DNA of 64,000 bases. It comes from a virus. A program made the position numbers and the translations under genes. This document shows, in pieces, positions 12,926 to 51,205 of this stretch; the first letter of the stretch is position 1, and each line of letters opens with the position of its first letter. Location: positions 1-64,000 of the IMG/VR virus record IMGVR_UViG_3300033145_000692, one strand, 5' to 3'. The notes beneath the pieces were generated by a model. That model searched no databases, was not told the origin of the DNA, and worked only from the letters and a program-made list of their open reading frames with translations.

Positions 12926-12931
12926 ACTACA

Positions 12932-12960: not shown

Positions 12961-12969
12961 GTTGGAAAT

Positions 12970-19021: not shown

Positions 19022-19389
19022 TTAGACTCCTTGAGTAGTTTGTTGACTGACAATGTCTTCAGAAAGTTCGTTAGCTGAGAGTTTGCCATCTGAGCATTGT
19101 CGAACAGAGCTTGCAATACTTCAGCGTCGGGTACTTTGCCGTCATAAGGTACATCACGAAACTGGTTTGGCCAGAACATGGTACGATCAATCAAGTTGAT
19201 GTCAATTGGATGATCGCCGTCAGGATCTGCCTGACATTTGAGTTCAACTAAATGGTTTATAATGGAGTAGAGATCATTGACATCTTGTGGAGTGATAGCC
19301 GCCCAGCCACCATCCGACTCTCTCCAACCATCCAACCACTTGGTTATCATCTTGGAGACAAATTTCCTCGAAGGACTGTATACTGTCAT
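19018..19389 (-). CDS. Hypothetical protein
   Basis: ATGA-coupled between sufS and nrdJ. Confidence 0.65.
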   Translation of the reverse strand: MTVYSPSRKFVSKMITKWLDGWRESDGGWAAITPQDVNDLYSIINHLVELKCQADPDGDHPIDINLIDRTMFWPNQFRDVPYDGKVPDAEVLQALFDNAQMANSQLTNFLKTLSVNKLLKESK

Positions 19390-20564
19390 TTGGCATTCTC
19401 CCTGAACTCTCTCTGGATGCGTTCAACGTGGAAACACAGGTCGTCAATGTCTGACCAGTCATTCAAGAAGTTGAAGCTGGCGCGGACACTTCCACTAGGA
19501 CAATTGAGAAATCTGTGAAGAGGTCTTGCACAATGAGTGCCACCTCTCACAGAAATACCCACGTCGGCTAAGCAAGCAGCCACATCATGCGAATGGGCAT
19601 CCTCCACAACGAAACTGATGACGGGAGACCTACCATTGATACCTCCACCGAGAATTCTCACGTTGATGTCTGAAAGCTTCCTGTAGGCATAATCAGTTAT
19701 CCTCTCCTCACGAATTTTTCTCAGGTGACGTTCGGTAGGTTCACATTGGATATATTCCACTGCTGCCCCCAGACCGATTGCTTGGATGATCGGTGGCGTA
19801 CCTGATTCAAACATCCTTGCTTGGTCCACCCACTGAAACATTGGACGGATGTCTTGGAGAACCACATCAAGACCCGGCATCCCACCACCGAAAGACGAAG
19901 GTTGAATCTGGTCGAGCATTGTTTCCTTGATGTATAGGACTCCAATCCCAGTTGGTCCAAACATCTTGTGACCGCTGAACGCCATGAAATCGACGAACAT
20001 ATCCTCGACGTTATGGGGGTAGTGAGCGATACTCTGCGCCGCATCAGCCAACACCATAGCACCTACCTTATGAGCAGCCATGGTTAGTTTGGAGATATCA
20101 TTCCTGGTACCAAGGACATTAGAGACAACGGGCAATGCAACGATCTTGGTACGTGCATTGAGAAGTTCCAAGTAGGCTCTCTCGTCGATGTTACCGAAGT
20201 TGTCAATTGGGACCACCTTCAAGGTCGCACCCGTGCGATTGGCAAGGGCGATCCAAGGAACAAGGTTGGAATGGTGATCCATGACGGTCACCATGATCTC
20301 ATCGCCCTTCCCGAGTATCCATTTCAGACCACGGGCTACGATATTGATTGCCTCGGTAGCTCCACTGGTGAAGACAATCTCCTTCCTATCAGCACCAATA
20401 AAATTTGCCACTTTGAATCTGGCGTTCTCGAACGCTTTGGTAGTAGCCTCAGCTTCGTCATGGAAACTTCGGTGGACATTGCTGTATGTATCACAGGCAT
20501 CATCCATCACTTTCCTAACAGATTTGGCGCAAGGTGTGCTGGCGGCGTTATCGAGATAGATCAT
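19386..20564 (-). CDS. sufS: Cysteine desulfurase, SufS/group II type
   Basis: YLDNAAST, FTSGATEAIN, HHSN, DAAQS, FSGHKMFGPTGIG (PLP Lys), RGGTHCA (catalytic Cys). Confidence 0.92.
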   Translation of the reverse strand: MIYLDNAASTPCAKSVRKVMDDACDTYSNVHRSFHDEAEATTKAFENARFKVANFIGADRKEIVFTSGATEAINIVARGLKWILGKGDEIMVTVMDHHSNLVPWIALANRTGATLKVVPIDNFGNIDERAYLELLNARTKIVALPVVSNVLGTRNDISKLTMAAHKVGAMVLADAAQSIAHYPHNVEDMFVDFMAFSGHKMFGPTGIGVLYIKETMLDQIQPSSFGGGMPGLDVVLQDIRPMFQWVDQARMFESGTPPIIQAIGLGAAVEYIQCEPTERHLRKIREERITDYAYRKLSDINVRILGGGINGRSPVISFVVEDAHSHDVAACLADVGISVRGGTHCARPLHRFLNCPSGSVRASFNFLNDWSDIDDLCFHVERIQREFRENAK

Positions 20565-21473: not shown

Positions 21474-22511
21474 TTATCCCTTGAAAAATGGGGTTCTGGT
21501 TGTCTCACTGTACCAATTCTCTTCCTTTGACCCATCAGACGCTAGCCCTGTGGCGATATCATTTAAGACTGCGACTCGCTCATCAGACTCTTCCCGTGGT
21601 AGGTCAGTGAAGACATGACCACTCGTTATGGCTTCCCAACAGTTCTTCACACGCGCTTCGAGTTCAAACTGGTAGGAGGACTTCACACGTGAACGGTGGT
21701 TGGCAACACGTAGCAGTGGGTACTCACCCTTGAGCACATCGCCGGTCGGTTTTGACACCAGTTCGTCGATACATACGATTGTCTCTTCTGAGCCAACCGT
21801 GTCGCCGAGCAGCCACCCATAGAGCGTACACTGAGAAGCGTAACTCTCGGAACAACTCTCCATGTAATCCCTGTTGATGATCATACCACGGAAGTCATGT
21901 TCCATGTACATTTTGTGGGACTTCATATGGGACGCACTCGTCTTGAGTTTCCCAGACTTATTCGGAATGGGGTCATAGGCATCACGACAAAGCATGTAGC
22001 CCTTCGTTGGGCTGGCGGCGTACTTCGAGCAGAAGGATTTTACTTTCCAATCCAAGATCACACTGATGCGACCTTCCCCGAGATCAAGTACGAAACGGCA
22101 ATCTGGCTTCCCAAGGAAAGGGGCACCACCAACTGTTCCTGTCAGCTTGCACTCGAACCTTGGGTCTTCAACCGATTGCTTGAGAAGTGCCAACAGTTCG
22201 TCATAGCTGCCGGTTTTCTTGTACTGCTCAAAACAGAAGAGACCGGCTTTCCATGCGAAGTCTCGGTTATGTTCTTCAACCTGGTCTTCAAAAAGTGTGG
22301 TCAATTCGTACACTGGATCAACGCCCTTGCCGAATAGCTCTTCGTGTAATGACGACTTTACATAGGCATCAAAGGCAGAGCCTACGCACATCGGACCTGT
22401 TTGAAGAAGCTTAGCCGGACGGCTGTCCGCTAGGTACTTCAAGACAAACTCTTCGGTGTCCGTCTCGAACAAGTTCTGTGACGAGTAGGACAGATAAGTT
22501 GGGATTCTCAA
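21474..22511 (-). CDS. PD-(D/E)XK exonuclease (RecB/Cas4-like phage exonuclease)
   Basis: LSYSS, GSAFD, FLGKPD...ILDWK, QCTLY. Confidence 0.7.
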   Translation of the reverse strand: MRIPTYLSYSSQNLFETDTEEFVLKYLADSRPAKLLQTGPMCVGSAFDAYVKSSLHEELFGKGVDPVYELTTLFEDQVEEHNRDFAWKAGLFCFEQYKKTGSYDELLALLKQSVEDPRFECKLTGTVGGAPFLGKPDCRFVLDLGEGRISVILDWKVKSFCSKYAASPTKGYMLCRDAYDPIPNKSGKLKTSASHMKSHKMYMEHDFRGMIINRDYMESCSESYASQCTLYGWLLGDTVGSEETIVCIDELVSKPTGDVLKGEYPLLRVANHRSRVKSSYQFELEARVKNCWEAITSGHVFTDLPREESDERVAVLNDIATGLASDGSKEENWYSETTRTPFFKG

Positions 22512-23075: not shown

Positions 23076-23367
23076 TTATGGTACCCTCCATCCCGGCGAA
23101 GACAGTGACTTCCTCATGTAACCCAGGCAGTGTCGCCTTGGATGGCATCTGATCCACTAAGTGCTGACAACACTCCACCTGAAGCGTTGAAGCCACACGG
23201 ATTAGAATCCCAGCGAACATCATAGCTCTCAGTGGGTCATCTGCACGAATGCAGGCAAGGAGTCCGTCAAAGGCATACTGCAACTGATCAAAGATTGTTG
23301 GCTGCATTTGGGGCTCGGGTTGGGGCTCGGGTTGGACATCTTGTACGTTGGTTTCGTCTCGCGGCAT
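23068..23367 (-). CDS. Hypothetical protein
   Basis: Coupled ORF. Confidence 0.6.
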   Translation of the reverse strand: MPRDETNVQDVQPEPQPEPQMQPTIFDQLQYAFDGLLACIRADDPLRAMMFAGILIRVASTLQVECCQHLVDQMPSKATLPGLHEEVTVFAGMEGTING

Positions 23368-23903
23368 CAGCTTTCTCCTAAAAGTTTCATACAGAAATTG
23401 TAATCGTGATTATCCATCGGATTGATCGCCATATAGTCAATCAGATGTCTGTCGAGTGCATCCCAAACCATCTGATCGACCCTGACTGCATCCGCCCGAT
23501 TTTGCCACCTACCAAGAGTTTCATAGGGCGTGGCCCCACTACGTGTTACCAGAATGTTGAAGGTAGGGTACTCTTCGTCAAACTTCCGACAGATGTCCAC
23601 CAGTGGTTCGTATGCAGGTGAGTTATCCTCAAATGCGTAGATGCACTGGAGAAAGAGTGGAGAGTCGGTAACAACGCTTTTGACTCCAGCCGACAGTGGA
23701 AGATGTTCAGCCTCAAACTGCTGTCCGAATGTGTTGACATAGTCCCAAGGTTTCAAAGTTCTTCCAGCATACACATACTGTTTGACCACTTCCTGGACTA
23801 ACTCAACATTGAAAAACCCTCTTCGCAGGTCGGAGTAGATTCGTGCGGCGAGCGTGCTTTTACCAACCCCCGGACCTCCGTAGATGTTGATTCGTGGTTT
23901 CAT
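23367..23903 (-). CDS. P-loop nucleotide kinase-like protein (AAA_28/NadR-like)
   Basis: INIYGGPGVGKST, ELVQEVVK, VTDSPL. Confidence 0.8.
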   Translation of the reverse strand: MKPRINIYGGPGVGKSTLAARIYSDLRRGFFNVELVQEVVKQYVYAGRTLKPWDYVNTFGQQFEAEHLPLSAGVKSVVTDSPLFLQCIYAFEDNSPAYEPLVDICRKFDEEYPTFNILVTRSGATPYETLGRWQNRADAVRVDQMVWDALDRHLIDYMAINPMDNHDYNFCMKLLGES

Positions 23904-24367
23904 CGTCCCCCCACTCGAAGGATATAGCTGAAACAGTTTCTGTCCTCGCTGATGAGCATTTGCCAAGGTGTGCGGGCGATGCAAAGTGGTATCACTGTTC
24001 GCAGTTCAGGTAGGACACGGCTTCCGACTTCCAGGGCTTGTCTTAATCCCACTACCATCGGAGGTTCGTTTCCATAGTAAATAGTCTTGAATGGACCCTT
24101 AAATGGGCAGAGTACAACGTGGACGATCCAGTCGGGACCATGCATGGTTCCAATGACTTCGCACATTGGTAGTTCAGCTTCAAAACCCGTTCCTTCTGCC
24201 AACTCGCGGATAGCCGCTCGTACAGGTGTCTCACCTGGTTCGACTCTCCCACCTGGAAGATTAAGCCTACCAGCTTGCCAGGAAGGGTTTTTCTTGTCAA
24301 TAAGAACCACCCAATCAATGTCTGGATTGTCAATCGACTCCGCGTAACATAGAACATACTCTACCAT
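23900..24367 (-). CDS. NUDIX hydrolase
   Basis: NLPGGRVEPGETPVRAAIRELAEGTG (Nudix box with second Glu replaced by Gly). Confidence 0.85.
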   Translation of the reverse strand: MVEYVLCYAESIDNPDIDWVVLIDKKNPSWQAGRLNLPGGRVEPGETPVRAAIRELAEGTGFEAELPMCEVIGTMHGPDWIVHVVLCPFKGPFKTIYYGNEPPMVVGLRQALEVGSRVLPELRTVIPLCIARTPWQMLISEDRNCFSYILRVGGR

Positions 24368-29248: not shown

Positions 29249-29282
29249 TGAATATATAGCTTTGCCAATGATGTTGTCCAAC
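29249..29282 (-). promoter_or_regulatory. Bipartite motif GTTGGACAA-N10-AAAGCYATATATTCA, copy 1 (putative promoter)
   Basis: Near-identical copy at 45900-45933. Confidence 0.6.
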
Positions 29283-29878
29283 TACTTCTGACTGTTTCGG
29301 ATGTAATTCAAAGAACCTTCGACAAAGGACCTCGTGTCGTAACAATTGTAAGGATTCCAAGGGCGTGGAACAAGAATCGCCCTCCCACCAGCCCCCTCGA
29401 AAGCTAGTGTGTTACCATGGTAGTCGTCGATCAAAAGGGTGTTCTTGTTGGCGAGGAGATACTTCTTAGTAGTGAAGACGTACTGATTCTGTATCCAGTC
29501 TGGGAGATGCTTCTGCATCCACTTGAGCTTACCACTGGTGCAAGAGACGTTGTTGGTCAGTGTTGAACAGATGAAGACATTGTCTCTACCAACAATGTCA
29601 ACACAGTGGTCGAGCAATGTATCGTGGAGATCAGAGGTGGTCATGTCCTCCCAAAGGGTATCGTCGAGCATACCCCATATTTGCCAAGGAACCCAGTTGT
29701 TGATCGTTGGGTGTTTGAGATTCATGGCTGCTACAATATCATATCCGCACTCCACCGGAAACTCACATGGTGGGCACCCAAGGAAACGCATTGCACAGGC
29801 AGTGAAATTGTTGAACACATCGTCCAGGTCAACCATGATTCGCGTGATCCTCGAAATGTATCTAAGATTTGAAATCAT
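29282..29878 (-). CDS. 5'(3')-deoxyribonucleotidase (HAD/NT5C family)
   Basis: MVDLDDV, GKLKWM, LLIDD, PWN. Confidence 0.85.
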   Translation of the reverse strand: MISNLRYISRITRIMVDLDDVFNNFTACAMRFLGCPPCEFPVECGYDIVAAMNLKHPTINNWVPWQIWGMLDDTLWEDMTTSDLHDTLLDHCVDIVGRDNVFICSTLTNNVSCTSGKLKWMQKHLPDWIQNQYVFTTKKYLLANKNTLLIDDYHGNTLAFEGAGGRAILVPRPWNPYNCYDTRSFVEGSLNYIRNSQK

Positions 29879-30665
29879 AGTCTTGCTCTCTGCAAAATCT
29901 CTCATGGAGTTTAATCCTGGTTCTCTGCACAGTCGACGTTGACAATCCCATAGCCTCTCCTATCTGACTGTCGGTGTATGCCTCCATTCTCATCGTGATT
30001 ATCTTCCTTTCCACAGGTGTCCTAGCAGTCGAGAGAATGCCCTGGAAACTTTCTGCAAACTCCAATGAGACATCTTTAGCCATATCCAACATGAAAGTGC
30101 TGATCGGAATTTTTCTCGTAATGTCACCATCTGAGTTTGTGACTGACCTTCGTCGCCTAAGGGTCAAGGGCTCTGAAGAATCACACTCATACAGTTCGCG
30201 AACTACACGGTAGATCGCAACATAGAGATATGGTGGCACTTTGAGTTCTGGTCCATCATTACCCCACTGGTCTAATGTCGCTTGGAGCTTCTCATCACTG
30301 GACTGGCGAAACTTGTGGACAAGCGTGTGGACAGCACTGGTTAGTGAAAGCAGTCCAGCGGAAAACAAGTCGTCAGACAGATAGATAGCACAACGTCGTG
30401 ATCGAATCAGCCGGGTGATCACCTCGGTGATTAAACGAGTGTTGCAGACAATGAAGTGATTGATATCATCAGTACCTCCCTTTACTGCCTTCTCAAATAG
30501 TTTACCCTGGATCTCAGGTGGAGGACACGTACACCATTTGCTGTTAGCATAATCAACCGCATCACCACATATCCCTTCAATCCCAGAGGTTAAACACTTT
30601 CCAATGAAGATGGTAAGATTTCGATCTTGCCACGGAACTTGCCATGGAACTTGATTGTTCATCAT
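29862..30665 (-). CDS. Divergent sigma70-family factor / HTH regulator
   Basis: DDLFSAGLLSLTSAV (region 2-like); ERKIITMR...SQIGEAMGLSTSTVQR (region 4 HTH). Confidence 0.65.
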   Translation of the reverse strand: MMNNQVPWQVPWQDRNLTIFIGKCLTSGIEGICGDAVDYANSKWCTCPPPEIQGKLFEKAVKGGTDDINHFIVCNTRLITEVITRLIRSRRCAIYLSDDLFSAGLLSLTSAVHTLVHKFRQSSDEKLQATLDQWGNDGPELKVPPYLYVAIYRVVRELYECDSSEPLTLRRRRSVTNSDGDITRKIPISTFMLDMAKDVSLEFAESFQGILSTARTPVERKIITMRMEAYTDSQIGEAMGLSTSTVQRTRIKLHERFCREQDYDFKS

Positions 30666-31311: not shown

Positions 31312-31725
31312 TCACTCACTGAAGGCTTCAGCATCAAGTTCGTCGAGCATTGTGTCGATGTCATTTTGAGTAGGTACCCTCCAAGAAGATTTCCAATAGT
31401 CTTTCCAGTTGGGCGGTGCAAAGAGTTTGTCGTATTCAAATTGGGTTGCAGCCGTCAGAATCCAGATGCCAATCCCTTTGTTATCCCAATGTGGCCACTT
31501 AATGCGTTGAGCCTTCGTAAAGCTGTACTTCTTCGGATGCTTCACATCAACCCAACGCTCGCCGATACCACTTTTGAACAGGTAGAGGTCAGGGATACCC
31601 CTCTGGAAAGCATTCCCGTGCATCACCTCGACGACCCACCCATGGGTCTCAAGGAACTCCTTCAAGTCCTTCTGGATGTACCACTCCGCGCCATGTGTTG
31701 CTTTCTTGATGATGTTACCCATCAC
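31312..31725 (-). CDS. VRR-NUC / Holliday-junction-resolvase-like nuclease
   Basis: E..IQ, GIPDL, WVDVK, FTKAQ. Confidence 0.75.
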   Translation of the reverse strand: MMGNIIKKATHGAEWYIQKDLKEFLETHGWVVEVMHGNAFQRGIPDLYLFKSGIGERWVDVKHPKKYSFTKAQRIKWPHWDNKGIGIWILTAATQFEYDKLFAPPNWKDYWKSSWRVPTQNDIDTMLDELDAEAFSE

Positions 31726-31775: not shown

Positions 31776-32102
31776 CTAAACAACGAACTTACCGTCAGCC
31801 CAAATGAGCTTGCGAACGTCATGTGGAATTTCAGTACTGGTGATAATCACCATGATGCGAACCTTGTCAACCATTAGCAGACTCTCTGCCCGGCGTATAG
31901 CCCGCGACAATGCCCGTTTCCGAGCTTGCCTACCATTGGTGATCACTTGCTCCTCAACTTGACCCTTCCACCAAAGGTGCCCGACAGTCATCGTTTGAGT
32001 GAGGTGTTTATAGGATGGTTTCGACCAGTACCAACACTCCCACATCTCTTTCTTGGGGTCCCAGATCTCTACGTTGTACTGAAGCACTTCCCAGTCTTTC
32101 AT
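31776..32102 (-). CDS. Hypothetical protein
   Basis: TGATG-coupled to sulfotransferase 3. Confidence 0.6.
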   Translation of the reverse strand: MKDWEVLQYNVEIWDPKKEMWECWYWSKPSYKHLTQTMTVGHLWWKGQVEEQVITNGRQARKRALSRAIRRAESLLMVDKVRIMVIITSTEIPHDVRKLIWADGKFVV

Positions 32103-32632
32103 CACGTACTCCTTGGGATTGTGTAACCGTGGTTGCAAATGGTGTCGCTGTACCTATCAACAACGAGGTCGATTAACTCGGGTGTGTAGTAGTCGGCAAA
32201 GTCTCGACCTGCCCGCTTCTCAGATACATTCCTCCATGGAATCTCAGCGGGTGGAAACCCGATCTCCACCATCAGTTGGTTGAAATCCTCCTGGAGGTTT
32301 TCGTAACGAAGAGTATGCGTGCAGAGGTGTTGCCCAAAGAACAGCCCGCTCTGCATGTAGTGGTTAGGCTCGGCTACCCTCTGTCTCAACCATGTAGGAA
32401 AATGGTAGTCATGCTTCGTCTTGAACATCTCAAGGTAGTACCATGAAACAAACAAATCAAACGGGTCCCTCACTGTTGAGAAGACGATCCAACCCGCTGG
32501 TAATTCCTTGTACTGATGGTGGCTCATCTCAGCCTCAAAGCCACGTCTATTGACAAGCACCTTGCTGGTTGCCTGTGAAGCCGTCCGTGGGTGAGCGATA
32601 AACGCCACCTCTTTTTCACCATGGATGTACAT
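32102..32632 (-). CDS. Sulfotransferase family protein (copy 3)
   Basis: 5'-PSB FIAHPRTAS; 3'-PB VRDPFDLFVSWY; RYENLQEDF. Confidence 0.8.
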   Translation of the reverse strand: MYIHGEKEVAFIAHPRTASQATSKVLVNRRGFEAEMSHHQYKELPAGWIVFSTVRDPFDLFVSWYYLEMFKTKHDYHFPTWLRQRVAEPNHYMQSGLFFGQHLCTHTLRYENLQEDFNQLMVEIGFPPAEIPWRNVSEKRAGRDFADYYTPELIDLVVDRYSDTICNHGYTIPRST

Positions 32633-33147
32633 TACAGTATTTCGTACCCGTTGTCTAAGATGTCTCTCTCGAACAGACTCACTACATGTGCAGTTAGTTC
32701 AGGAGTGTAACAGTCGGCGAAGTTGCGACCTTCGCGCCTCTCGGAAACATTAGTTCGTTTGATCTCTGTTTGTGGCAATCCGACCTTCTCCGTGAACTTG
32801 TCAAAATCCTCTTGTAGATTCTCGAAATGGAGAACGTCAGTCGAGAACTTCAAACCAAAGAACAAGTCGTTGATATAACTGTACGGGCTGGGTCGCTGTA
32901 TGACATGGGCAGCCCATTTCTCGAACGTCACTCCGAGTTTCTCAGGCTGTGCATAGTACCAGGACACAAACAAATCGAACGGGTTCCGAATCACGGAGAA
33001 AGTTGTCTTCCGACACCATATCTCCTTGAACTGGTGATGTGAACCTATCTTCTCGAATCCCATATCAAGAAGGGTGTAACTCATAGCAAGTGATGCCGTC
33101 TTTGGGTGGGCGATGAACGCCACATTCTTTTCTTCGTGAATGTACAT
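32632..33147 (-). CDS. Sulfotransferase family protein (copy 2)
   Basis: FIAHPKTAS; IRNPFDLFVSWY; HFENLQEDF. Confidence 0.8.
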   Translation of the reverse strand: MYIHEEKNVAFIAHPKTASLAMSYTLLDMGFEKIGSHHQFKEIWCRKTTFSVIRNPFDLFVSWYYAQPEKLGVTFEKWAAHVIQRPSPYSYINDLFFGLKFSTDVLHFENLQEDFDKFTEKVGLPQTEIKRTNVSERREGRNFADCYTPELTAHVVSLFERDILDNGYEIL

Positions 33148-33665
33148 TATGAACTCCTTGTCCAGTAATTGTGCTGTTCGATTTCGTCTCCGAAGAAACG
33201 TCCAACCATGTCGAGTGTGGCATCATTGTAGATACCCATAAAGTCCCGACCCATACGCCACTCTGAAACATTCATTCGTTTGATCTTTGTCTGTGGGAGC
33301 CCAACCTTTTTCATCAACTGGTCGAATTCCTCTTGGAGATTCTCGTAATGAAGGATGTCAGTACAGAGGTGTTGCCCAAAGAACAGTCCATGTGAAATGT
33401 AGTGAGGTGGATTGTTGAGAAAAATTCTCAACCAGTATTCAAAAGACCAATGTTCCTCACGTCTCCTGAAGTAGTACCACGACACCAACATGTCAAATGG
33501 ATTCCGAACCACCGAGAAAGTTGTCTCAAGACAAGAGGACTCCCTGAACTGGTGGTGTGACCCATCCTGTACAAAGCCACTCCCAAGGAGTGTCGCAGCC
33601 ATCGCAACTGACGCCGTTCTCGGGTGGGCTATAAAAGCCACCTTCTTTTCTCCATGGATGTACAT
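33147..33665 (-). CDS. Sulfotransferase family protein (copy 1)
   Basis: FIAHPRTAS; VRNPFDMLVSWY; ATG overlaps the polA stop (TAATG). Confidence 0.8.
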   Translation of the reverse strand: MYIHGEKKVAFIAHPRTASVAMAATLLGSGFVQDGSHHQFRESSCLETTFSVVRNPFDMLVSWYYFRRREEHWSFEYWLRIFLNNPPHYISHGLFFGQHLCTDILHYENLQEEFDQLMKKVGLPQTKIKRMNVSEWRMGRDFMGIYNDATLDMVGRFFGDEIEQHNYWTRSS

Positions 33666-36184
33666 TATTCCATCTCCGGGGCACACATCTTGACAGTAAC
33701 AGAGCCGCCCTTCTTCTCAGCCCAGTTTGCCTGTGCTTCATTCCATGTCATCCCGATCAATGGAACCTGCGGGCGATAATGTTCCACCACCTCACGTACC
33801 TTTTCAGTCACTTGTGAGACATACTCAGGATCAGTAACGCACATGACCTCGTCATGGACGTTGAGAGGGGCAACTTTCAACTCGGACACACCAACTGGTT
33901 GAAGGTCCCAGATTGCACGTTGGGCATGTTTGGTGATCTGACCACCAGGAGATTGAATCTCGTGGTTGGCGGCGGCACGCATGTTCGCTTGCTGCAACCC
34001 AAAGGCAGCCCCATACAATGCACTGGAGACCGCTCCACCCGCCGTCTGAACCCTGTCACGACGCCAAACCTTCACCGGATGGTTTTTCCAGCCCTTGGGC
34101 AAGGCATTCGCCATCTTAAACATCTCGTGGCAGATTTGATTCTCCAATGTGAAGAACCTCTTGAAGCCAAGGAAGGATTCAACACAATCCTTAGGCTGCC
34201 GCCACACCACCTGTGACCCAACGCCTCCGGGTTGTCGCATAGAGCAGAAGTCATCAAATGTCTTCTCACGTGCTTTCCCCACGCCGGGGTACCGCTTGTC
34301 GAATTCCTCGAAAGCCCCTTTGGCATTCTCTTCCTTGACACCTAGGTTTCTCACCAGGGTCTCCCAGGTACCACCATAGATCATGGCGAACACACCGGAC
34401 TTCCCCTTCAAGTACATATCGTTCTCAGTACCTGAACTGGCTAGGACCTCACCATAGGTGTGTCCTGGGAAGATCGCCATGCCGAACAGACCATGAATCT
34501 TCTGGCGAACCAAACCCTTATCGTCACACTCATCACATTCCCCCATTCTATCTTCACCAACCTTTGTCCCGTTGCAGAATGGACACTCGATCTTTTTGAC
34601 CAGGTCTCCCCGCAACGCTGGATCATTGTAGACCGCGTCTGCCAGTGTCACCTCGAATGAGTCAAAGTCACCACCACAGAGGATCGTGTCTCCCCAGTTA
34701 AGTGGGAAGCAGCGGCGAACCGCTTTGGTCGCTTTGATCCCCTGTGCATTGAGCCCTGAGGTACCAGCCATTCGAGAGGACTTGGTACCCACAACAACGA
34801 AGTCTGCATGGAACCTGCCAGCTACCAGCAGCTTGTCGTAGAGTTCAACCTCCTTGGCAGCGATCTTGATGTCAAGGATTTCTTTGGCGCGGTACGCAGC
34901 CGGATGGTTGCCCATCTCCTCTTCACAACGGTCCCATGACGCCAGCATCTGTCCAACCCCATTGCAGCGGGAGCAGCCCTTACCTGAACACTTCTCACAC
35001 TCTTCATCTTCCTCAATGTGCCATTCACGTATGGAGGTCAGGTTGGCTTTCTTCGTGGACCATCCCGTGGTGTCTTCGATCGACATAATCTCGATCTCAT
35101 CCATCACCTCTTCCATGTAGATGCGTACGGAAACTGGTTTGTTCGTATTGATTGGGCTGTTGTCAACCTTAGCTTGGGCAGTTTCACGGAGACCTATCAT
35201 ACCCTGTTTATCAATCTCGAAACCGTGCCATCTCACCACGGGTACCATGGTTGCTAAAATGGAATCGTCATCACCTGGTGGTGGGCACTTGAAGTGCTTG
35301 TACAACGCGCGTGTGTACACGATATCATCCTTGGCATACTCACGGGCGTCAGCGTTGTTTTCCCAATGGTCGATGAAGAGTTTGATCTGGGCTGGCCAGG
35401 TATGACCAACAAGCTTATTCTCTTCCTTCTTTGGGTCCCACTCCCAGACTTCCCAATTCTTCTCAGGTGTGGAAAGAGCCCTCGCGAAAGGCGCATAGCC
35501 AAGCTCCTTCGGATACCAAGCTTTGGGAGGCTCCACGTCTTCATAATGGAACTTCGGCATGAAACCCATGGCGTGTTCGGCGAGGAACTTCAGACCGCCC
35601 GCAGGGGCGAACCTTAAGACAACGTCCTTGAACTCGTCATCAAACACACCCTCATGCTCCCGGTCCACTACGGACCATTTGGGGGCTTCTGGGTCGACTT
35701 TCTTGGCAAAGTAGATTCCATCTAACTCGACCCGCTTCTCCAGTTCTTCACTCAGCGCATACGCCAACGCAGTCGGAACCTTCCGAATGTTGATATTCTT
35801 ACGAGCCATCAAGCTTTGGTATTCACCCTTCCGAGAGACCAACATCAGGTCGATAGCACTGGCGAACTTGATGGCAGGACCATCTCTGGCTTCCATCTCG
35901 CGATCAGCGATCTCTTCAATGTGGTACTTGGGTGTCCAGTGGTTGGGGCAGAGAGCCCAGATGGTGTACAGTTTCGCCAACTGGAAAACATCGAACGTCA
36001 GATTAAAACCAACGATACAATGTTCGAGCCAACTCTCGATCAGGTTAAGAGTCTTCCAGATAGGTTCGGACCAGATGTCGTACATGTTGATAGGTCCGTC
36101 GTCCAATGCAAACTGGATCAGCACTGGCATAGAGTATAGTCCTACAGTCTCAGTATCCACGAACAATTTAGAAGGTTCAGACAT
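33665..36184 (-). CDS. polA: Family A DNA polymerase with 3'-5' exonuclease domain and zinc-finger insertions
   Basis: VDTET, GFNLTFD, DFDSFE (motif A), KSGVFAMIYG (motif B), VHDE (motif C). Confidence 0.92.
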   Translation of the reverse strand: MSEPSKLFVDTETVGLYSMPVLIQFALDDGPINMYDIWSEPIWKTLNLIESWLEHCIVGFNLTFDVFQLAKLYTIWALCPNHWTPKYHIEEIADREMEARDGPAIKFASAIDLMLVSRKGEYQSLMARKNINIRKVPTALAYALSEELEKRVELDGIYFAKKVDPEAPKWSVVDREHEGVFDDEFKDVVLRFAPAGGLKFLAEHAMGFMPKFHYEDVEPPKAWYPKELGYAPFARALSTPEKNWEVWEWDPKKEENKLVGHTWPAQIKLFIDHWENNADAREYAKDDIVYTRALYKHFKCPPPGDDDSILATMVPVVRWHGFEIDKQGMIGLRETAQAKVDNSPINTNKPVSVRIYMEEVMDEIEIMSIEDTTGWSTKKANLTSIREWHIEEDEECEKCSGKGCSRCNGVGQMLASWDRCEEEMGNHPAAYRAKEILDIKIAAKEVELYDKLLVAGRFHADFVVVGTKSSRMAGTSGLNAQGIKATKAVRRCFPLNWGDTILCGGDFDSFEVTLADAVYNDPALRGDLVKKIECPFCNGTKVGEDRMGECDECDDKGLVRQKIHGLFGMAIFPGHTYGEVLASSGTENDMYLKGKSGVFAMIYGGTWETLVRNLGVKEENAKGAFEEFDKRYPGVGKAREKTFDDFCSMRQPGGVGSQVVWRQPKDCVESFLGFKRFFTLENQICHEMFKMANALPKGWKNHPVKVWRRDRVQTAGGAVSSALYGAAFGLQQANMRAAANHEIQSPGGQITKHAQRAIWDLQPVGVSELKVAPLNVHDEVMCVTDPEYVSQVTEKVREVVEHYRPQVPLIGMTWNEAQANWAEKKGGSVTVKMCAPEME

Positions 36185-36622: not shown

Positions 36623-36943
36623 TTAGAACACGTCGTAAGACCAACTCGAATCACTAGCTTTGATATTCGCTGACAAGAGTGGTCTGGTGATCACCGATTG
36701 ACCATTGTCGAGTCGAATCCTTATGGAATCATACTGACCAAATTCTCCCTCGATCCGTCCCAAGCTGCCAGTTTCAATGAGAGGGTCACCGGTGTCGATC
36801 TCCACCCCCGCCATTATTTGGTTTTGAACAATAAACTGGTACATGAACTGCTCGCTCTCAACCATCAGGATTGTGAACGGATCTAGTTTACTGATCTGTA
36901 TCTTCCCACCGGAAGGGACTCTCGCCGCTGCTTCTGAATTCAT
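36623..36943 (-). CDS. Hypothetical protein
   Basis: ORF; start uncertain. Confidence 0.5.
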   Translation of the reverse strand: MNSEAAARVPSGGKIQISKLDPFTILMVESEQFMYQFIVQNQIMAGVEIDTGDPLIETGSLGRIEGEFGQYDSIRIRLDNGQSVITRPLLSANIKASDSSWSYDVF

Positions 36944-37730
36944 ATTCTGGTGCATGTTTCTTGATATCCTTTTTGATCTCAGCATCACTCAGGTAACCTG
37001 CTGCCCATGCCATCAGACGAGGTGGGAGCCCATTGATACCAGCGTTCAACATCACCGCTGCCATCTTACTCAACTGCGCTTTGGTTTTCTTATACCGAAA
37101 CTTTCTGGTGACAGGTACCCCACGGCGGGTCTTTTTTCCAGCCTTCTTCTCCTTGAACTTGATGATCTTATCAGCGGCGGCAACTTGCTTGTCTTCTGGT
37201 AGCTGACAGATCGCTTCGATATTCACTGCCGACAACAAGCCAAGTGCTGCCTTTATCTGCACCTTCTCAGGAAGCTTCAATAGACGAAGACGGATATGAA
37301 CCCATCTGGTTGGTCTCTTCAACTCCTTTGAAGCTGAACGAAGTGGTACCCCCTCTGGATAGAGTGCCTCGACTGCCTTTGCTTCCTCAAGCATGTTGAG
37401 GTCTTTACGCTCCAGATTCTCAGTGAGGTTGAGCAGTCTCGCCTGGTGCTCATCCAAACCTTTGAAGACAATCGCTGGAATAGTTTCCCACCTCAACAAG
37501 GACTCTACCGCTTTGAATCGCCGGTGCCCAGCCAACAATCTGAATCGCCCTTCCCACGGTTGGACGGCTATGGGGAACTGCAAACCGATCTCTTTGATTG
37601 AGTCTGCCAGTTCAATAATTGACTGAATCGTGAAAGCACCTCGACAGTTGAAACGCTCATCATATAGGATATCCTCAAGAGGAATCTCATAGGCATCATA
37701 CTGTTCAAGGCGCTTCATGTCTACGTCCAC
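36888..37730 (-). CDS. parB: ParB/Spo0J-like protein
   Basis: IELADSIKEIGLQFPI, LAGHRR, ENLERKDL..LEEA, HTH. Confidence 0.88.
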   Translation of the reverse strand: MDVDMKRLEQYDAYEIPLEDILYDERFNCRGAFTIQSIIELADSIKEIGLQFPIAVQPWEGRFRLLAGHRRFKAVESLLRWETIPAIVFKGLDEHQARLLNLTENLERKDLNMLEEAKAVEALYPEGVPLRSASKELKRPTRWVHIRLRLLKLPEKVQIKAALGLLSAVNIEAICQLPEDKQVAAADKIIKFKEKKAGKKTRRGVPVTRKFRYKKTKAQLSKMAAVMLNAGINGLPPRLMAWAAGYLSDAEIKKDIKKHAPEYEFRSSGESPFRWEDTDQ

Positions 37731-41372: not shown

Positions 41373-41681
41373 TTAGTATGTGTCCCAATCAATGGTTTCA
41401 AGTGGGACGTCCAAGTCGATCTCGACATCGAGATCAGAATCATCAAGTGATGGAAAGTACTCTAGAAAACTTTCGGCTACGATGTAAACCATCACTTCCA
41501 CATCTCTCTCGCTGATGGCTTCGATGATGGCAATGTTGTCATACTGCTCGTATGCCATAGCGTACTCATCGAAGCCTTCCAAACCAACATTCAACGCCTT
41601 CCGTAGTTGGGTGTAGGGGTTGTCAAGTTGTGAAATCCACTCTTGACTGAACGTCAAATAGAGTCGTATCCTTGACATCAT
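41373..41681 (-). CDS. Acidic hypothetical protein
   Basis: ORF following the helicase. Confidence 0.55.
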   Translation of the reverse strand: MMSRIRLYLTFSQEWISQLDNPYTQLRKALNVGLEGFDEYAMAYEQYDNIAIIEAISERDVEVMVYIVAESFLEYFPSLDDSDLDVEIDLDVPLETIDWDTY

Positions 41682-44671
41682 GTTACTTCCCCTTCCATAC
41701 CAGTTTCCCAATCAATGCCACTAGTGATCTTACCCATGGTCATCAATTCGAGCTTACGGTTTTCCCTGATGATGTCGACCACACGTTCATCTGTTGGCAG
41801 ATGGATGAGGTCGACGATAACACACCCAAGATTTTCATCCATACCCTTACGGTGAATCCTGTCTTCACTTTGGACACGGTACTCACCTTTGAACGAATTC
41901 GACCAATAGACTGCCATCCGTGCCTCGCATAAGGTCAGAGACATACCACCCGATTCTGGATGGGCAACAAAAGCGACTCTCGGATTGTTCTCCAAATCAC
42001 CCCAGAAATCTAGAGCTTCCACCTCGGTGATGGTGGTTCCGTCCTCCAATGTTACTTGGAAACCACGTCCATCACATCTCACTACTGCCCAGCCATCATT
42101 ATGGCAGATGCGGACACAGCGATCAACACTCCCTGTGAAACCTGCAAAGATCACGATCCTTCCAGTCTCTTCACACTCCTCAAGAAGACTTCGGAGAGCG
42201 GGTTCCTTCGGGCAGGCTACTTCTCTGATGATCCGTTTGGTCTTCTTCATCTGTCCAGAGCCTTTACACTTTGGACATTTGACCCGCCTCTTCTCCAGCT
42301 TCGATACCAACTCCTCGGACAGCAAGCTGATATCCTGGTAGACCTTGTGCTCAATCTCAGGATTGAACCATTCGTCAACCTCCCCGCAAGCATTCTCACA
42401 ATGGTTGCAGGCTTTGGTACCATCCTCAATGTCACGGTACTGGAATCCGTCGGACAACTCCCTGAGAAGAGTCATGCCGATCATGGCGTTCTGCGCCGAC
42501 TCGATGATAGTCTTGCCGACCCTCAGTAGTGAAGCCTTGGGCTTGCACATCACCTTCCGGTAACGCTTATCTGGGAGTGTGAGGCAATCCTTCTTATGCT
42601 TGATCAGTGCAAGACCCTTGAGCCTCTCGAACATGTAGGCGACTTCGTTCTTAGTTGGCACGAACTTGTGGTACTCATAGTTGTCATCAGATAGTGCAAG
42701 CATCGGATCAGGATCATGTGGACCATCTTCATAGAGGTCCCCACATGTGTTGCACTTATCATCGTTGTCCCGCCAACCATAAGTCTTCCAAAAGGTGCCA
42801 GTATCGAAAGTCTTTTGGACTTGGAAGGCAAGTCTCTTCTCTAGGGCTTTCACACTACCCTCTTTCAAATAACCTGGCCAAGCAATCTCGGCTTGACTCC
42901 ACCAATCAGTCGGACGTTTTGGGGATGGCGTCCCAGACATGAGGATTACGTATCCGCTCCACATGTACTTGGAGCGAATCAAATCGGCTAGCATCAGAGC
43001 CGCCTTTGACCTCTGACTGGATGGAGTCTTACATCGTGAAGACTCATCGAAGATGACGCCATTTGGTACCGGATCACCTGGACTCCTCTCGTCCATGATT
43101 CTCACGAGTCGCTCGTAAGTCATGAAATCAACAGTGGCACAGGTTTCGTCAAAACCCCACTTCTTGAACTCGCGTTGGATGTTCGGAAGGGATGTCTTCG
43201 GACCCACCCAATACCAGTGTGGGACGTTGGCTCGCTCGATCACTTCCTGTGCAGATAGGGTGTTGTGAGTCACAATGAACTCATCCGTGACATACAACTG
43301 ATTGTCTGCTTCAACGGCGATACAGATACACTCCTCTTCGCCTATTGACTCGACAGTCGTGATGGCGCGCGTCGGTTCATACTTTGTGGGTACCACATAC
43401 GTATCCAGCTTCCGGCTCAACTTGAAAGGTTGAATTGAAGAGTGGAATGAAGCAATGATGGTGTACGCCAACCGACCCTTCAACTTTTTACCTTTGTAGG
43501 TATACGTTGGGATTTTCTCAGTGGTGTTACAGGTTCCACCAAGGGATTGAACGAGTGTCACAAACACATCGCGTAGCTCGGGCGCAGTTGTTGAGAATTC
43601 AACGCAACCGGATTTTGGTGCATGTCCATCCGAATCACATAACCCTTGTAAAAGTTCAATACGTTTCTGAACTGTATTGAACAAATACCCATCAGGTAGA
43701 AACTTTTCAAATGACCGGCAACCCTTCAAACCAGATCGCTTGATGAAATTGTTGACTGTAACGTCCTTGATACCATAAGTCATACAACGATACCATCTGA
43801 GGGGGGTATCCATCAATAAGTTCAGGCGCTTAACAGTCTCGTCATCTGGTATCGAAACTCTCATTGGTGCTGATTGAGTCAAACATCCGTTACCTAAAAT
43901 ATATCCCAACAGATATGGTGGAATCTCAGAAGGGACATCACCATACTCGACAGGAACAACCATCGGAATGTAATGTTTGTTGTGCCCGCATGGTTGTTGA
44001 AGCCCTCGTGAAATAATTTCCTGTAATTCCAAAGTCTCATAAGGTAGACCTCGAAACTTTCGACTCGTTGTCCGAACATTCCAGAGGTGGTCTCCACCAC
44101 AGACTGTTGATGAACCATCAGTAAAAGTCACACGGAACATTTCCATTTTACCACGAGGAAACACACCTTTAACCCGGGTCGTACCACCATCTGGATTGAT
44201 AACCTCATCACCAACTTTTACGTCACCAAATGTAGTCCAACCGGTGGGAGTAGCTATTTTAGTGTATTTACACTGAGCCTTGCCGGTGCCCATTTCGGCG
44301 CCAAAAATCTGGAAATGGTAGGTCAGACCGTGATCGGTCATGTCCTTCTGGTGTTCCATCAATGGGCGCTCATACGAGTGGTGTTCAAGTGGTCGGTCAA
44401 ACCATTCAAAGACATTCTCGCCCATCAGATAGTGGAGATTGAACTGATTCCTGAAGCTGTCATCAATCGACCAAATCTTCTTTGGTTTCTTATCATAGCC
44501 ATGCCACTTGGCACCAGCGAATGCCTTAATCTCATCCTTAAAGGCGAACGCCGACTTCAAGAAGAAGATTCGATCGTCCTTGAACTCCAAGGTTGCAGGG
44601 CTGCGAAGTTTGGTACCCTTCTCAGTTCGGTATTCAAGCTTGCATTGTATGATCTTTCTCTCTTCAGACAT
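41678..44671 (-). CDS. SNF2/SF2 helicase containing an intein
   Basis: MEHQ, EMGTGK|T, FDESS, MSGTP, GGMSLTL, QSEDRIHRKG. Confidence 0.9.
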   Translation of the reverse strand: MSEERKIIQCKLEYRTEKGTKLRSPATLEFKDDRIFFLKSAFAFKDEIKAFAGAKWHGYDKKPKKIWSIDDSFRNQFNLHYLMGENVFEWFDRPLEHHSYERPLMEHQKDMTDHGLTYHFQIFGAEMGTGKAQCKYTKIATPTGWTTFGDVKVGDEVINPDGGTTRVKGVFPRGKMEMFRVTFTDGSSTVCGGDHLWNVRTTSRKFRGLPYETLELQEIISRGLQQPCGHNKHYIPMVVPVEYGDVPSEIPPYLLGYILGNGCLTQSAPMRVSIPDDETVKRLNLLMDTPLRWYRCMTYGIKDVTVNNFIKRSGLKGCRSFEKFLPDGYLFNTVQKRIELLQGLCDSDGHAPKSGCVEFSTTAPELRDVFVTLVQSLGGTCNTTEKIPTYTYKGKKLKGRLAYTIIASFHSSIQPFKLSRKLDTYVVPTKYEPTRAITTVESIGEEECICIAVEADNQLYVTDEFIVTHNTLSAQEVIERANVPHWYWVGPKTSLPNIQREFKKWGFDETCATVDFMTYERLVRIMDERSPGDPVPNGVIFDESSRCKTPSSQRSKAALMLADLIRSKYMWSGYVILMSGTPSPKRPTDWWSQAEIAWPGYLKEGSVKALEKRLAFQVQKTFDTGTFWKTYGWRDNDDKCNTCGDLYEDGPHDPDPMLALSDDNYEYHKFVPTKNEVAYMFERLKGLALIKHKKDCLTLPDKRYRKVMCKPKASLLRVGKTIIESAQNAMIGMTLLRELSDGFQYRDIEDGTKACNHCENACGEVDEWFNPEIEHKVYQDISLLSEELVSKLEKRRVKCPKCKGSGQMKKTKRIIREVACPKEPALRSLLEECEETGRIVIFAGFTGSVDRCVRICHNDGWAVVRCDGRGFQVTLEDGTTITEVEALDFWGDLENNPRVAFVAHPESGGMSLTLCEARMAVYWSNSFKGEYRVQSEDRIHRKGMDENLGCVIVDLIHLPTDERVVDIIRENRKLELMTMGKITSGIDWETGMEGEVT
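43262..44278 (-). mobile_element. Class 3 (Ala-start, WCT) intein of 339 aa with LAGLIDADG endonuclease, inserted in the Walker A loop
   Basis: GK|AQCKYT...DHLW...CICIAV...VTHN|T; YLLGYILGNG and LQGLCDSDG. Confidence 0.88.
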
Positions 44672-44879
44672 TTTTCTTTCCCCAGATAACTTGATGCCAA
44701 ATTCTCTCATGCAAGAAGAAGAAGCCGACCTTAAACGCGAAACAGATGCTTGTCAATTCGATGCTTGTCTTCACACTGTCTGTGTATATGTAAGTAATGA
44801 GAAGTGTTAGAACGAATGAGAACGATTCCCAAGTGAAGCCTTTGAAGACTGAGCGGTGTATACAACTACTGTCTCTCAC
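44664..44879 (-). CDS. DUF2061-like small membrane protein
   Basis: RSVFKGFTW...KVGFFFLHERIW...WG. Confidence 0.75.
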   Translation of the reverse strand: MRDSSCIHRSVFKGFTWESFSFVLTLLITYIYTDSVKTSIELTSICFAFKVGFFFLHERIWHQVIWGKKNV

Positions 44880-46722: not shown

Positions 46723-47604
46723 TCAATCTCCTTTCACCCACCGTTTGCGGGCTTTCTTACGGGCGGCATCTTCCTGTTTCTTCTGACTCTCGGGGTCAAG
46801 ATGAAGAACCCATTCCAATGCAGCTTTCCAACCTTCCATGGCGTTACTGTAATCACCTATGGTCAATAGGAGAGGTGCTTCAACACCTTTTTCAAACTCT
46901 TCCCTGACATCCTTCAATGACCTCAAGTATGGTTGGACTTGAAAATCCCTCGTGAAGAAATCCTCAAGTTTCCCCTGCTTCACTGCCTCTTTGAATTGCT
47001 TGACTACACCTGCCGCTAAGACTTTGAACTCCATCTCACCCATCAGCTTCGCTTCATCAATGAAATTGACCCTCAACCTGGGAGGTATCTTCGATAACAT
47101 GTAGGCGTTACCCAGGTTAATCTCACCACGGTCGACTGCTCTCTGTGTTGATGTGTCAAGTCTGAGGAGTCCGAGTTGTTGACTTACCCAACCTGGTTTC
47201 TTGTTGACCAAGCTAGCCAATTCTATCAGTGTGATGTCAGGTCTGACCTTCTGAATCCGCCTGATCTGATTGGCGAATTCAATTGGTTTGGTTTCTGGTC
47301 GGATGGCATTTGCTTGAATCTGTAACGCAAGTACATCGTCATCCGACACATGGTGTTTGATGATACAGGGGACAGATGGTAGTCCGACCTCCCTGGCACA
47401 TGTTGTCCGCCACAGCCCATCAATGACCTCGAAATGATCCGACTGCCGTTGACTTGGTCTGACTGATATCGAGTTGAGAAACCCTATCTCTTTGATGGAC
47501 TCAAACAGTTCAAGGTATTCCACTGATTCAGTTGCGACCGGTCTGAGCAGCACCTGTGGATCAACAAGCTGATCGGTAGGTATTTCATGGAACTGGTCAT
47601 TCAT
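46723..47604 (-). CDS. parB: ParB/Spo0J-like protein (second, degenerate GxxR motif)
   Basis: LELFESIKEIGFLNSI, VIDGLWR, QANAIR, HTH. Confidence 0.8.
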   Translation of the reverse strand: MNDQFHEIPTDQLVDPQVLLRPVATESVEYLELFESIKEIGFLNSISVRPSQRQSDHFEVIDGLWRTTCAREVGLPSVPCIIKHHVSDDDVLALQIQANAIRPETKPIEFANQIRRIQKVRPDITLIELASLVNKKPGWVSQQLGLLRLDTSTQRAVDRGEINLGNAYMLSKIPPRLRVNFIDEAKLMGEMEFKVLAAGVVKQFKEAVKQGKLEDFFTRDFQVQPYLRSLKDVREEFEKGVEAPLLLTIGDYSNAMEGWKAALEWVLHLDPESQKKQEDAARKKARKRWVKGD

Positions 47605-50725: not shown

Positions 50726-51205
50726 ATGAGTATGAAGTACGCCGAAGGCGATATCAACAGTGACGCAAAAGGTTCTGGTGCCCGCGCCAACCAAGGGAAG
50801 ATCGACATGACTCTGGTGCCAATAATGTTGCTCGGGGGAGTCACCCGTGTGTTCATGGGTGGCAAATTGAAGTACGCCGAATTCAACTGGGCTAAAGGGA
50901 TGGCTTGGGGTACAGCGATGGCTTGCACATTGCGGCACCTATTCAAGTGGTGGTTCCTTCGTGAGGAAATCGACCCGGAGAGTGGTGAACACCATCTCGA
51001 CCATGTCCTCGCCAATGTCTTCATGATGAAGCATTACACCAAGGCATACCCTGAGGGTGACAACCGCCCGCCCGAGTCTGCAATGTTCGGGGTGTGGATG
51101 GATGACTTCTGTCAAACCTTCGATGAGGAAGCCTACCTGGACCGGAACCCTGATATCAAGAAGGCTGTTGAACTCAAAAGAGCGGGAGACAGGGATGGCT
51201 CTTAA
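50726..51205 (+). CDS. DUF5664-type dATP/dGTP diphosphohydrolase
   Basis: GARANQGK, GKLKYAEFNWAKG, LRH, DPESGEHHLDH. Confidence 0.85.
   Translation: MSMKYAEGDINSDAKGSGARANQGKIDMTLVPIMLLGGVTRVFMGGKLKYAEFNWAKGMAWGTAMACTLRHLFKWWFLREEIDPESGEHHLDHVLANVFMMKHYTKAYPEGDNRPPESAMFGVWMDDFCQTFDEEAYLDRNPDIKKAVELKRAGDRDGS

Follow-up and report, generated by a model that had tools for sequence, protein, structure and literature searches.

A variable cassette of small sulfotransferase-fold genes directly behind the DNA polymerase gene in a phage lineage

Viral metagenomes hold thousands of members of a family of small sulfotransferases, and no phage sulfotransferase with an established substrate was found in the literature; our search likewise turned up no work that addresses what any phage sulfotransferase does, and none on sulfated DNA. 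The nearest described members belong to PHROG 3347/PF03567, where they carry the labels galactose-3-O-sulfotransferase or sulfotransferase, and include ORF232 of Ralstonia phage phiRSL1 and gp051 of Stenotrophomonas phage DLP_6. No experimental characterization of these two proteins or of their relatives was found in the literature. Here, we describe three such genes, ST-A, ST-B, and ST-C, which are chained to the DNA polymerase gene polA in the IMG/VR virus record IMGVR_UViG_3300033145_000692. The window that we analyzed is the first 64 kb (positions 1 to 64,000) of this 100,907-bp record, which is rated 98% complete. The three proteins have the same fold and motifs as the small viral sulfotransferases of PHROG 3347/PF03567, which also occur in tandem arrays. 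Those relatives, however, lie mostly in glycan islands, whereas the lineage described here forms its own long-branch clade behind polA in a genome without glycosyltransferases of families 1 and 2 (GT1 and GT2). This polA-coupled, glycosyltransferase-free cassette of variable copy number is a new arrangement of an uncharacterized kind of phage gene. As a whole, the locus is best explained, if still tentatively, by O-sulfotransferases that depend on 3'-phosphoadenosine 5'-phosphosulfate (PAPS), are coupled to replication, and most likely use a sugar hydroxyl as their acceptor.

Among enzymes of solved structure, the best match is heparan sulfate 2-O-sulfotransferase (HS2ST; PDB 3f5f), a member of the Sulfotransfer_2-type family that stands here with other carbohydrate O-sulfotransferases. 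HS2ST likewise has P-K-T-A-S in its 5'-phosphosulfate-binding (5'-PSB) loop and uses a histidine as the catalytic base. The identity between the two is 16%, and the phage proteins are about half the size of HS2ST, without its acceptor-binding elaborations and its membrane anchor.

Two further systems offer comparisons. In thymidine hypermodification, the kinase 5-HMUDK activates 5-hydroxymethyluracil (5hmU) by means of a pyrophosphate leaving group (PMC5889632). Only if the sulfotransferases act on DNA would they parallel this enzyme, through a shared P-loop-kinase-like fold class and the placing of a leaving group on the hydroxymethyl of 5hmU, alongside a ThyA-family dUMP hydroxymethylase. 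They differ from it in having PAPS loops and no Walker A motif, no aGPT-Pplase partner, a transferase of the DNA-glycosylase fold, was recognized among the proteins scanned, and their activity on DNA is hypothetical. T-even-like phages carry variable sets of DNA glycosyltransferases, which transfer glucosyl or arabinosyl groups onto modified cytosine (PMC13326640). There, as here, the number and type of paralogous group-transfer enzymes vary among related phages, but chemistry and fold are different, and action on DNA has been demonstrated for the glycosyltransferases only.

Three sulfotransferase-fold proteins encoded next to polA

The cassette lies on the minus strand, and its flanks hold polA, a small protein without a family, a nuclease-like protein, an NT5C-type nucleotidase, and ligases. 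The genes named are as follows.

33665-36184 (-): polA, family A DNA polymerase, 839 aa (Pfam DNA_pol_A, 1.4e-13; PHROG 17, 1.4e-27)
33147-33665 (-): ST-A, type A mini-sulfotransferase, 172 aa counted from ATG (PHROG 3347, 8.7e-09)
32632-33147 (-): ST-B, type B mini-sulfotransferase, 171 aa (PHROG 3347, 3.1e-10)
32102-32632 (-): ST-C, type C mini-sulfotransferase, 176 aa (PHROG 3347, 2.9e-11)
31776-32102 (-): small protein, 108 aa from ATG, matching no Pfam or NCBIfam family; its start overlaps the ST-C stop via TGATG
31312-31725 (-): conserved protein, 137 aa, 64-90% identical in related contigs, which bounds the variable region behind polA; a probable PD-(D/E)XK-type nuclease, judged from the by-eye motif IPDL...VDVK alone, as Pfam gave no family
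29282-29905 (-): NT5C-type pyrimidine 5'-deoxynucleotidase (Pfam NT5C, 5e-05, 23.7 bits against a cut-off of 24.8), on the same strand as the sulfotransferases and four genes downstream

For ST-A, an alternative GTG start in the list of open reading frames, at 33686, falls inside polA. Stop and start codons overlap as TAATG at each of the three junctions, with gaaTAATGtac between polA and ST-A, cat-TAATG-tac between ST-A and ST-B, and ctg-TAATG-tac between ST-B and ST-C. The unbroken chain from polA to ST-C that a preliminary description of this DNA had reported is thus present at every junction. Terminator-like sites were looked for on the minus strand between polA and the sulfotransferases, and none were seen. 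The three sulfotransferase genes and polA probably share one transcript and are translationally coupled.

ST-A, ST-B, and ST-C are 49-56% identical in pairwise comparisons. Both PAPS motifs named in the preliminary description occur in all three copies: H-P-[RK]-T-A-S at residues 14-19, the 5'-PSB loop, and R-[ND]-P-F-D-x-x-V-S-W at residues 54-63, the 3'-phosphate-binding motif. Synonymous sites are saturated between the copies, and the ratio of nonsynonymous to synonymous substitution rates (dN/dS) is at most 0.2, indicating that the three are old duplicates under purifying selection. Their matching N termini are written in different codons and are therefore kept at the protein level, not by gene conversion. 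Each copy also has orthologs in other contigs, which, together with the low dN/dS, argues that these are real genes and not chance open reading frames.

All three copies match PHROG 3347, annotated as galactose-3-O-sulfotransferase, while an NCBIfam scan of the three gave no match. A profile built from the three copies retrieved 6866 cluster representatives at an E value of at most 0.001, nearly all of them 150-200 aa long, and the closest Atlas clusters are viral and carry Sulfotransfer_2. When a profile of 85 family members was searched against the PDB, it found cytosolic sulfotransferases, the best being SULT4A1 (2.9e-06), with VRNPfDllVSWY opposite RNPKDLVVSYY in the 3'-phosphate-binding helix and the YENL strand aligned as well. 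Nine residues (P15, T17, S19, H38, R54, N55, D58, S62, and E109) show little or no variation among the 85 sequences. R54 is invariant, and P15, T17, S19, and S62 are each conserved in at least 90% of the sequences. His38, 16 residues before R54, is also invariant and is a candidate catalytic base.

The AlphaFold2 model of ST-B, with a predicted local distance difference test score (pLDDT) of 93.5 and a predicted template modeling score (pTM) of 0.88, places the 5'-PSB loop between strand 9-12 and helix 19-28. Every Foldseek match of this model at an E value of at most 0.001 is a sulfotransferase. A VIA search, which is independent of Foldseek, returned sulfotransferases for all of the top 20 chains (Z 7.1-9.7, covering 146-166 of the 171 residues), led by HS2ST (Z 9.7; root mean square deviation, 3.3; 155 residues). 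Tyrosylprotein sulfotransferases (Z 7.1-7.5) rank below the carbohydrate and cytosolic enzymes, by small differences, and nucleotide kinases score lower than the sulfotransferases (Z 5-7). Sulfotransferase-fold enzymes of the leaving-group type also appear among the structural matches, namely LGS1, retinol dehydratase, and the sulfotransferase domain of olefin synthase. Profile and structure searches therefore agree with the preliminary description in identifying sulfotransferases. We predict with high confidence, from sequence and model together, that the three proteins are catalytically competent enzymes of the sulfotransferase fold, and we infer that they transfer sulfate with PAPS as the donor. 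A P-loop kinase identity was considered and ruled out, as the proteins have no Walker A motif (GxxxxGK[ST]) and kinases are clearly weaker structural matches.

Several properties of the proteins bear on how they might act. They are about 100 residues shorter than classical sulfotransferases, so that little would be left to cover the acceptor site. With pI values of 5.8-6.5, all three are mildly acidic, and the net charge of one lineage member is -19, a composition unlike that of typical DNA-binding enzymes. Judged without a signal-peptide predictor, a signal peptide would not be expected, because in the model the first strand of the fold begins directly after the N terminus. When polA residues 15-839 and ST-A were modeled as a complex, no support emerged, a result that counts neither for nor against an interaction.

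Genomic neighborhoods of the family and of the lineage

To place the cassette within its family, we compared it with 78 other viral loci whose sulfotransferases are 20-40% identical over the best matching segment, and which form 52 groups after near-identical loci are merged. The commonest neighbors are two GT2-type glycosyltransferases, UDP-galactopyranose mutase, and GDP-mannose dehydratase or epimerase, and at least one of GT2, UDP-galactopyranose mutase, and GDP-mannose dehydratase lies within six genes of the sulfotransferase in 17 of the 52. The remaining groups most often have, at most two genes away, sulfotransferases, methyltransferases, glycosyltransferases (GT1, GT2, GT25, and the sialyltransferase-type GT29), CMP-sugar synthetases, RmlD, and UDP-glucose dehydrogenase; dUTPase, RecA, and resolvase occur once each beside relatives in these groups. 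The nearest outgroups follow this pattern: in L005, GT61 and a methyltransferase adjoin four sulfotransferases, and in L081, a GT2+GT1 fusion and an O-methyltransferase are present. Sulfotransferase arrays elsewhere reach six copies.

Whole records give a similar picture. GT2 is present in 21 of 45 sulfotransferase-bearing viral records, often in several copies, and in six of the seven that are at least 90% complete. An HMM (hidden Markov model) search found a ThyA-family gene in none of the 45 records. An earlier tblastn search, of low sensitivity and since replaced by the HMM search, used the ThyA homologs of this genome and of phiRSL1 as queries and detected no ThyA homolog within 10 kb of any other family member. 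Overall, the family is tied to glycan chemistry, not to hydroxymethyl-pyrimidine chemistry. Its homologs are thus found largely where the preliminary description had said that they would speak against a role in DNA, in glycan modules unlinked to polA and marked by GT2, GT1, GT25, GT29, GT61, UDP-galactopyranose mutase, GDP-mannose dehydratase, and CMP-sugar synthetases.

The linkage to polA was sampled in viral contig L004 and ten metagenome contigs (L083-L092), all found with the sulfotransferase as the query, so that lineage members without a sulfotransferase would have escaped. In these 11 related contigs, polA is 72-93% identical and the gene order is the same, and in every one of them a sulfotransferase begins directly after polA. 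The synteny with polA that the preliminary description wished to see tested therefore holds in all contigs sampled from this lineage, but a relative of this polA lies near the sulfotransferase in none of the 78 other viral loci. Searches by polA instead yielded nothing beyond the L004 contig and a second contig that breaks off within polA. The linkage is confined to a single syntenic lineage and represents one evolutionary event, and because the contigs were ascertained through the sulfotransferase, it is not independent evidence of a functional link.

Copy number behind polA varies from one (L004, L086, L087, L088, L089, L090, and L091) to two (L085), three (the present genome), and four (L083); L084 has at least two and L092 at least one, both contigs ending inside a copy. 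In a maximum-likelihood tree, all lineage copies form one clade on a long stem (support, 99/99), within which five types, A to E, can be told apart. Type A comprises ST-A and its orthologs, copy 1 of L083 and the single copy of L087; type B, ST-B with copy 2 of L083 and the single copy of L088; and type C, ST-C with copy 3 of L083, copy 1 of L084, and copy 2 of L085. Type D is the fourth copy of L083, and type E is the single copy in L004, L086, L089, L090, and L091. The sets found in individual phages are {A,B,C}, {A,B,C,D}, {A}, {B}, {B,C}, and {E}, always in a fixed order. That the phages of this lineage carry between one and four of the five types in this slot suggests different acceptors or positions.

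The whole stretch from polA to the nuclease-like gene at 31312-31725 is variable and also contains one to several small proteins without a family. Homologs of the small protein at 31776-32102 stand downstream of the sulfotransferases in L004, L085, L087, L090, and L091, and similar small open reading frames were seen there by eye in L086 and L089. Members of this small downstream family are about 100-120 aa long, occur in 1-3 copies, and share the pattern Y-x-V-E, G-x-W, P-x-Y, LWWK. They occupy the following positions in relatives.

L085:10525-12002: small downstream family
L089:10519-11475: small downstream family
L004:10536-11184: small downstream family

The lineage stands apart from isolated phages. 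None of 50,697 phage records is a DNA-level relative of this phage, and isolated phages contain hardly any relatives of its polA and ThyA homologs, which leaves the lineage with no cultured relative and no host. A scan of genome contigs yielded only distant bacterial sulfotransferases, 21-39% identical over the segment matched, and no prophage belonging to the lineage.

Candidate acceptors

By analogy with the family, the acceptor may be a sugar-type hydroxyl of host origin, a proposal that we hold no more firmly than the explanation as a whole. A sugar hydroxyl is suggested because the family sits among glycosyltransferases and sugar-nucleotide enzymes and because the closest solved fold is that of a polysaccharide O-sulfotransferase. 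The three genes would then encode active, cytoplasmic, PAPS-dependent O-sulfotransferases from a mostly viral family of minimal enzymes, about 170-190 aa long and related to Sulfotransfer_2. Their probable coupling with polA in transcription and translation would mean that they are made during DNA replication. The genome contains no APS (adenosine 5'-phosphosulfate) kinase and no PAPS reductase, and in the absence of the former the PAPS would come from the host. Because the phage has no recognizable glycosyltransferase of its own, the host would have to supply the acceptor, as a glycan precursor or a glycoconjugate located on the cytoplasmic side, and sulfation would alter the charge of a surface polymer or its precursor during infection.

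A number of observations weigh against this proposal. HMM searches of the whole 100,907-bp record with PF00535 (GT2) and PF00534 (GT1) gave no match, so that the lack of a recognizable glycosyltransferase noted for the window in the preliminary description extends to the entire record. No glycosyltransferase appeared among about 75 proteins scanned with Pfam, PHROGs, or NCBIfam, families other than GT1 and GT2 being covered only via Pfam scans of about 65 proteins. Homologs of the glycan genes that flank the relatives are also missing from this genome, and these searches gave no glycosyltransferase or nucleoside diphosphate sugar enzyme, either nearby or elsewhere in the genome, that would mark the locus as a glycan-modification island. 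Instead, the sulfotransferase genes sit deep among replication and nucleotide genes, away from any host-interaction or structural module. On the tree, the stem of the lineage clade measures 1.12 changes per site and separates it from the glycan-linked members, and with a branch of this length specificity may have changed in the lineage. No acceptor, host, or habitat could be identified.

The Pfam scores point the same way. With Sulfotransfer_2 (PF03567; gathering cut-off, 22 bits), ST-A scores 14.2, ST-B 19.8, and ST-C 16.9 bits, and the Sulfotransfer_1 match of these proteins is also below the Pfam threshold. More distant family members and their neighbors do pass PF03567 (37.3 bits in L006; Atlas clusters, 97-98% PF03567), and the lineage is therefore a divergent relative rather than a formal member of that family. 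Nor does the fold fix the acceptor, because the Z scores of other sulfotransferase classes lie within 1-2 units of that of HS2ST.

The preliminary description had proposed instead that DNA or a nucleotide is sulfated, and this survives as a minority possibility that we regard as unlikely. The phage would swap thymine for 5hmU, and the sulfotransferases would act on the hydroxymethyl in new DNA, or on 5hmU at the nucleotide level. The proposal draws on the following pyrimidine genes.

10002-10892 (-): divergent ThyA-family enzyme (Pfam Thymidylat_synt, 35.8 bits; TIGR03283, 106 bits, below its cut-off)
12200-12973, 12970-13368, and 13729-14286: pyrimidine-pool set of N6/N4 DNA methylase, MazG-like pyrophosphatase, and dCMP deaminase
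23367-23984: AAA_28 P-loop protein, dNMP-kinase-like, resembling genes annotated as thymidylate kinase in jumbo phages

The ThyA-like enzyme of the preliminary description is indeed present. In weak alignments (E values of 1e-4 to 5e-4) to thymidylate synthase and to the CMP hydroxymethylase MilA, it retains the catalytic Cys at C146 and the Asp at D169, and it carries Asp in place of L143 and Asn at N177. Asn177 selects dUMP, and the hydrophobic residue at position 143 excludes water, hydroxymethylases having an acidic residue there (PMC13326640). The Asp at L143 and the Asn at N177 make the homolog look like a dUMP hydroxymethylase, as far as such weak alignments can be read. Together with the dCMP deaminase, the MazG-like pyrophosphatase, the NT5C-type nucleotidase, and the dNMP-kinase-like protein, it resembles the toolkit of base-replacing phages, and the phage may replace thymine by 5hmU independently of what the sulfotransferases do. 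The enzyme lies about 22 kb from the cassette, however, and no ThyA homolog accompanies the sulfotransferases in the 45 other records of a family that is otherwise glycan-linked.

Position is the other strand of the argument. Translational coupling to polA, the sulfotransferase directly after polA in 11 of 11 contigs, and the failure to find a glycosyltransferase in the genome would all suit an enzyme acting on DNA. The polA linkage, however, is a single event in one lineage ascertained via the sulfotransferase, and the acidic proteins fit poorly with DNA as a substrate. In DLP_6, gp051 is encoded two genes upstream of the DNA polymerase, but polymerase proximity in two or three of about 50 independent contexts is close to chance by our own estimate, which was not computed.

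A further hint comes from the neighborhood of phiRSL1 (L162; NC_010811.2, 160456-171064), where ORF232, a larger family member, lies one gene from ORF230, a MilA-like ThyA homolog with the same Asp/Asn signature as the one here; a hypothetical gene stands between them. The record annotates three hydroxymethylcytosine (HMC) glucosyltransferases, two sugar-nucleotidyl transferases, and an APS kinase within ORF230-ORF238. The cluster looks like a candidate pathway to a sulfated, glycosylated hydroxymethyl-pyrimidine in DNA, and no paper discussing it was found. ORF233, ORF234, and ORF237 had no PDB sequence matches, and their glycosyltransferase labels could not be verified, which takes weight from the comparison.

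On DNA, the sulfate could stay as an anionic end product; chemically more plausible is that it would serve as a leaving group for displacement by a nucleophile, in the manner of the 5-HMUDK pyrophosphate. A sulfate ester on 5hmU would be a reactive leaving group, comparable to those of sulfotransferase-activated benzylic alcohols. The kinase precedent itself, and the use of sulfate as a leaving group by LGS1, retinol dehydratase, and the olefin synthase sulfotransferase domain, favor such a step. In its most specific form, which we rate as slightly less likely again, the enzymes would have been recruited from glycan chemistry to DNA: ThyA-made 5-hydroxymethyl-dUMP would give 5hmU DNA and then a sulfated base or a sulfate-activated intermediate replacing the kinase step, with the five types serving different sequence contexts or products. 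Against an activation step, no aGPT-Pplase-like transferase or other downstream enzyme was recognized among the proteins scanned, which do include several conserved proteins without a family (for example, the 345-aa product of 21474-22511), and a sulfated DNA base was not found described in the literature.

A target that is neither a sugar nor DNA seems improbable to a similar degree. The enzymes would modify a host small molecule or a protein, such as a nucleotide immune signal, a metabolite, or a tyrosine of a host or phage protein, including the small downstream proteins, in the service of takeover or counter-defense. The enzymes would be made early, with the replication genes, and are expected to have no export signal, which fits such a role, and related phages differ in their type subsets, a turnover that is typical of arms-race genes. 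A variable number of small proteins without a family always accompanies the sulfotransferases, and an open acceptor site would be expected because the fold is minimal and lacks the acceptor-covering loops of 280-300-aa enzymes. Positive evidence for a particular target is absent, however, and we know of no sulfotransferase that modifies a defense signal; for tyrosine in particular, the tyrosylprotein sulfotransferases are the weaker structural matches (Z 7.1-7.5), though by small differences.

Very improbable, finally, is a loss of sulfate transfer that would leave proteins which only bind or consume PAPS (affecting host sulfur or 3'-phosphoadenosine 5'-phosphate pools) or play a structural role: the scores under the Pfam cut-offs and a SufS-type cysteine desulfurase through which the phage touches sulfur metabolism elsewhere are consistent with it, but the catalytic residue classes, including His38 and the Lys/Arg of the 5'-PSB loop, are kept in 85 diverged sequences, and the five paralog types are under purifying selection.

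Other genes of the record and significance of the cassette

The polymerase encoded by polA has an exonuclease-like region at its N terminus in addition to its Pfam and PHROG matches. Two Cys-rich insertions, at residues ~394-411 and 534-569, contain CEKCSGKGCSRCNG and a DnaJ-type CXXCXGXG segment and are conserved across the lineage. A polymerase fused to uracil-DNA glycosylase (UDG), as in T-modified phages (PMC13697223), was also considered; Pfam shows no UDG domain in this polA. Further genes of the record are listed below.

14627-19021 (-): class II (B12-type) ribonucleotide reductase, 1464 aa, apparently split by two inteins that carry an HNH and a LAGLIDADG homing endonuclease, respectively
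19018-19389 (-): 123-aa protein without a family, after the cysteine desulfurase; both are directly upstream of the ribonucleotide reductase
19386-20564 (-): SufS-type cysteine desulfurase (Aminotran_5, 380 bits; TIGR01979, 383 bits, below its cut-off)
36888-37730 (-) and 46723-47604 (-): ParB-like proteins (ParB_N and HTH_ParB) in the replication region, one ParB-like gene being two open reading frames and a tRNA-Thr gene upstream of polA
41678-44710: 1010-aa protein with a weak LAGLIDADG match
51057-51707 (+), with genome positions 96083-96700, 97329-97979, and 97945-98649: four HNH-type endonuclease-like paralogs
genome 91378-94465 (+) (L096:7378-10465), beyond the window: run of a radical SAM enzyme (339 aa), a DeoC/LacD-type aldolase-like protein (215 aa), and a nucleoside 2-deoxyribosyltransferase-like protein (181 aa)

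Copies of the HNH-type family sit directly upstream of polA in relatives (for example, L004:5931-7285 and L088:6849-7469), suggesting that the family behaves as a mobile element. The plus-strand run may be a nucleoside or base-modification module, and homologs of its nucleoside 2-deoxyribosyltransferase-like protein lie a few kilobases from distant sulfotransferases in L081 and L032.

The lineage is the cleanest place in which to ask what phage sulfotransferases do, as its cassette is without the usual glycan partners, is fixed behind polA, and carries between one and four exchangeable types. Were a host glycan the acceptor, the cassette would represent a new phage route to recharge the host surface. 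If the acceptor is 5hmU in DNA, it would provide the first sulfated DNA base or sulfate activation step, by which sulfur-oxygen chemistry would join the DNA modification repertoire, and it would offer a new activation step for the enzymatic production of modified DNA.

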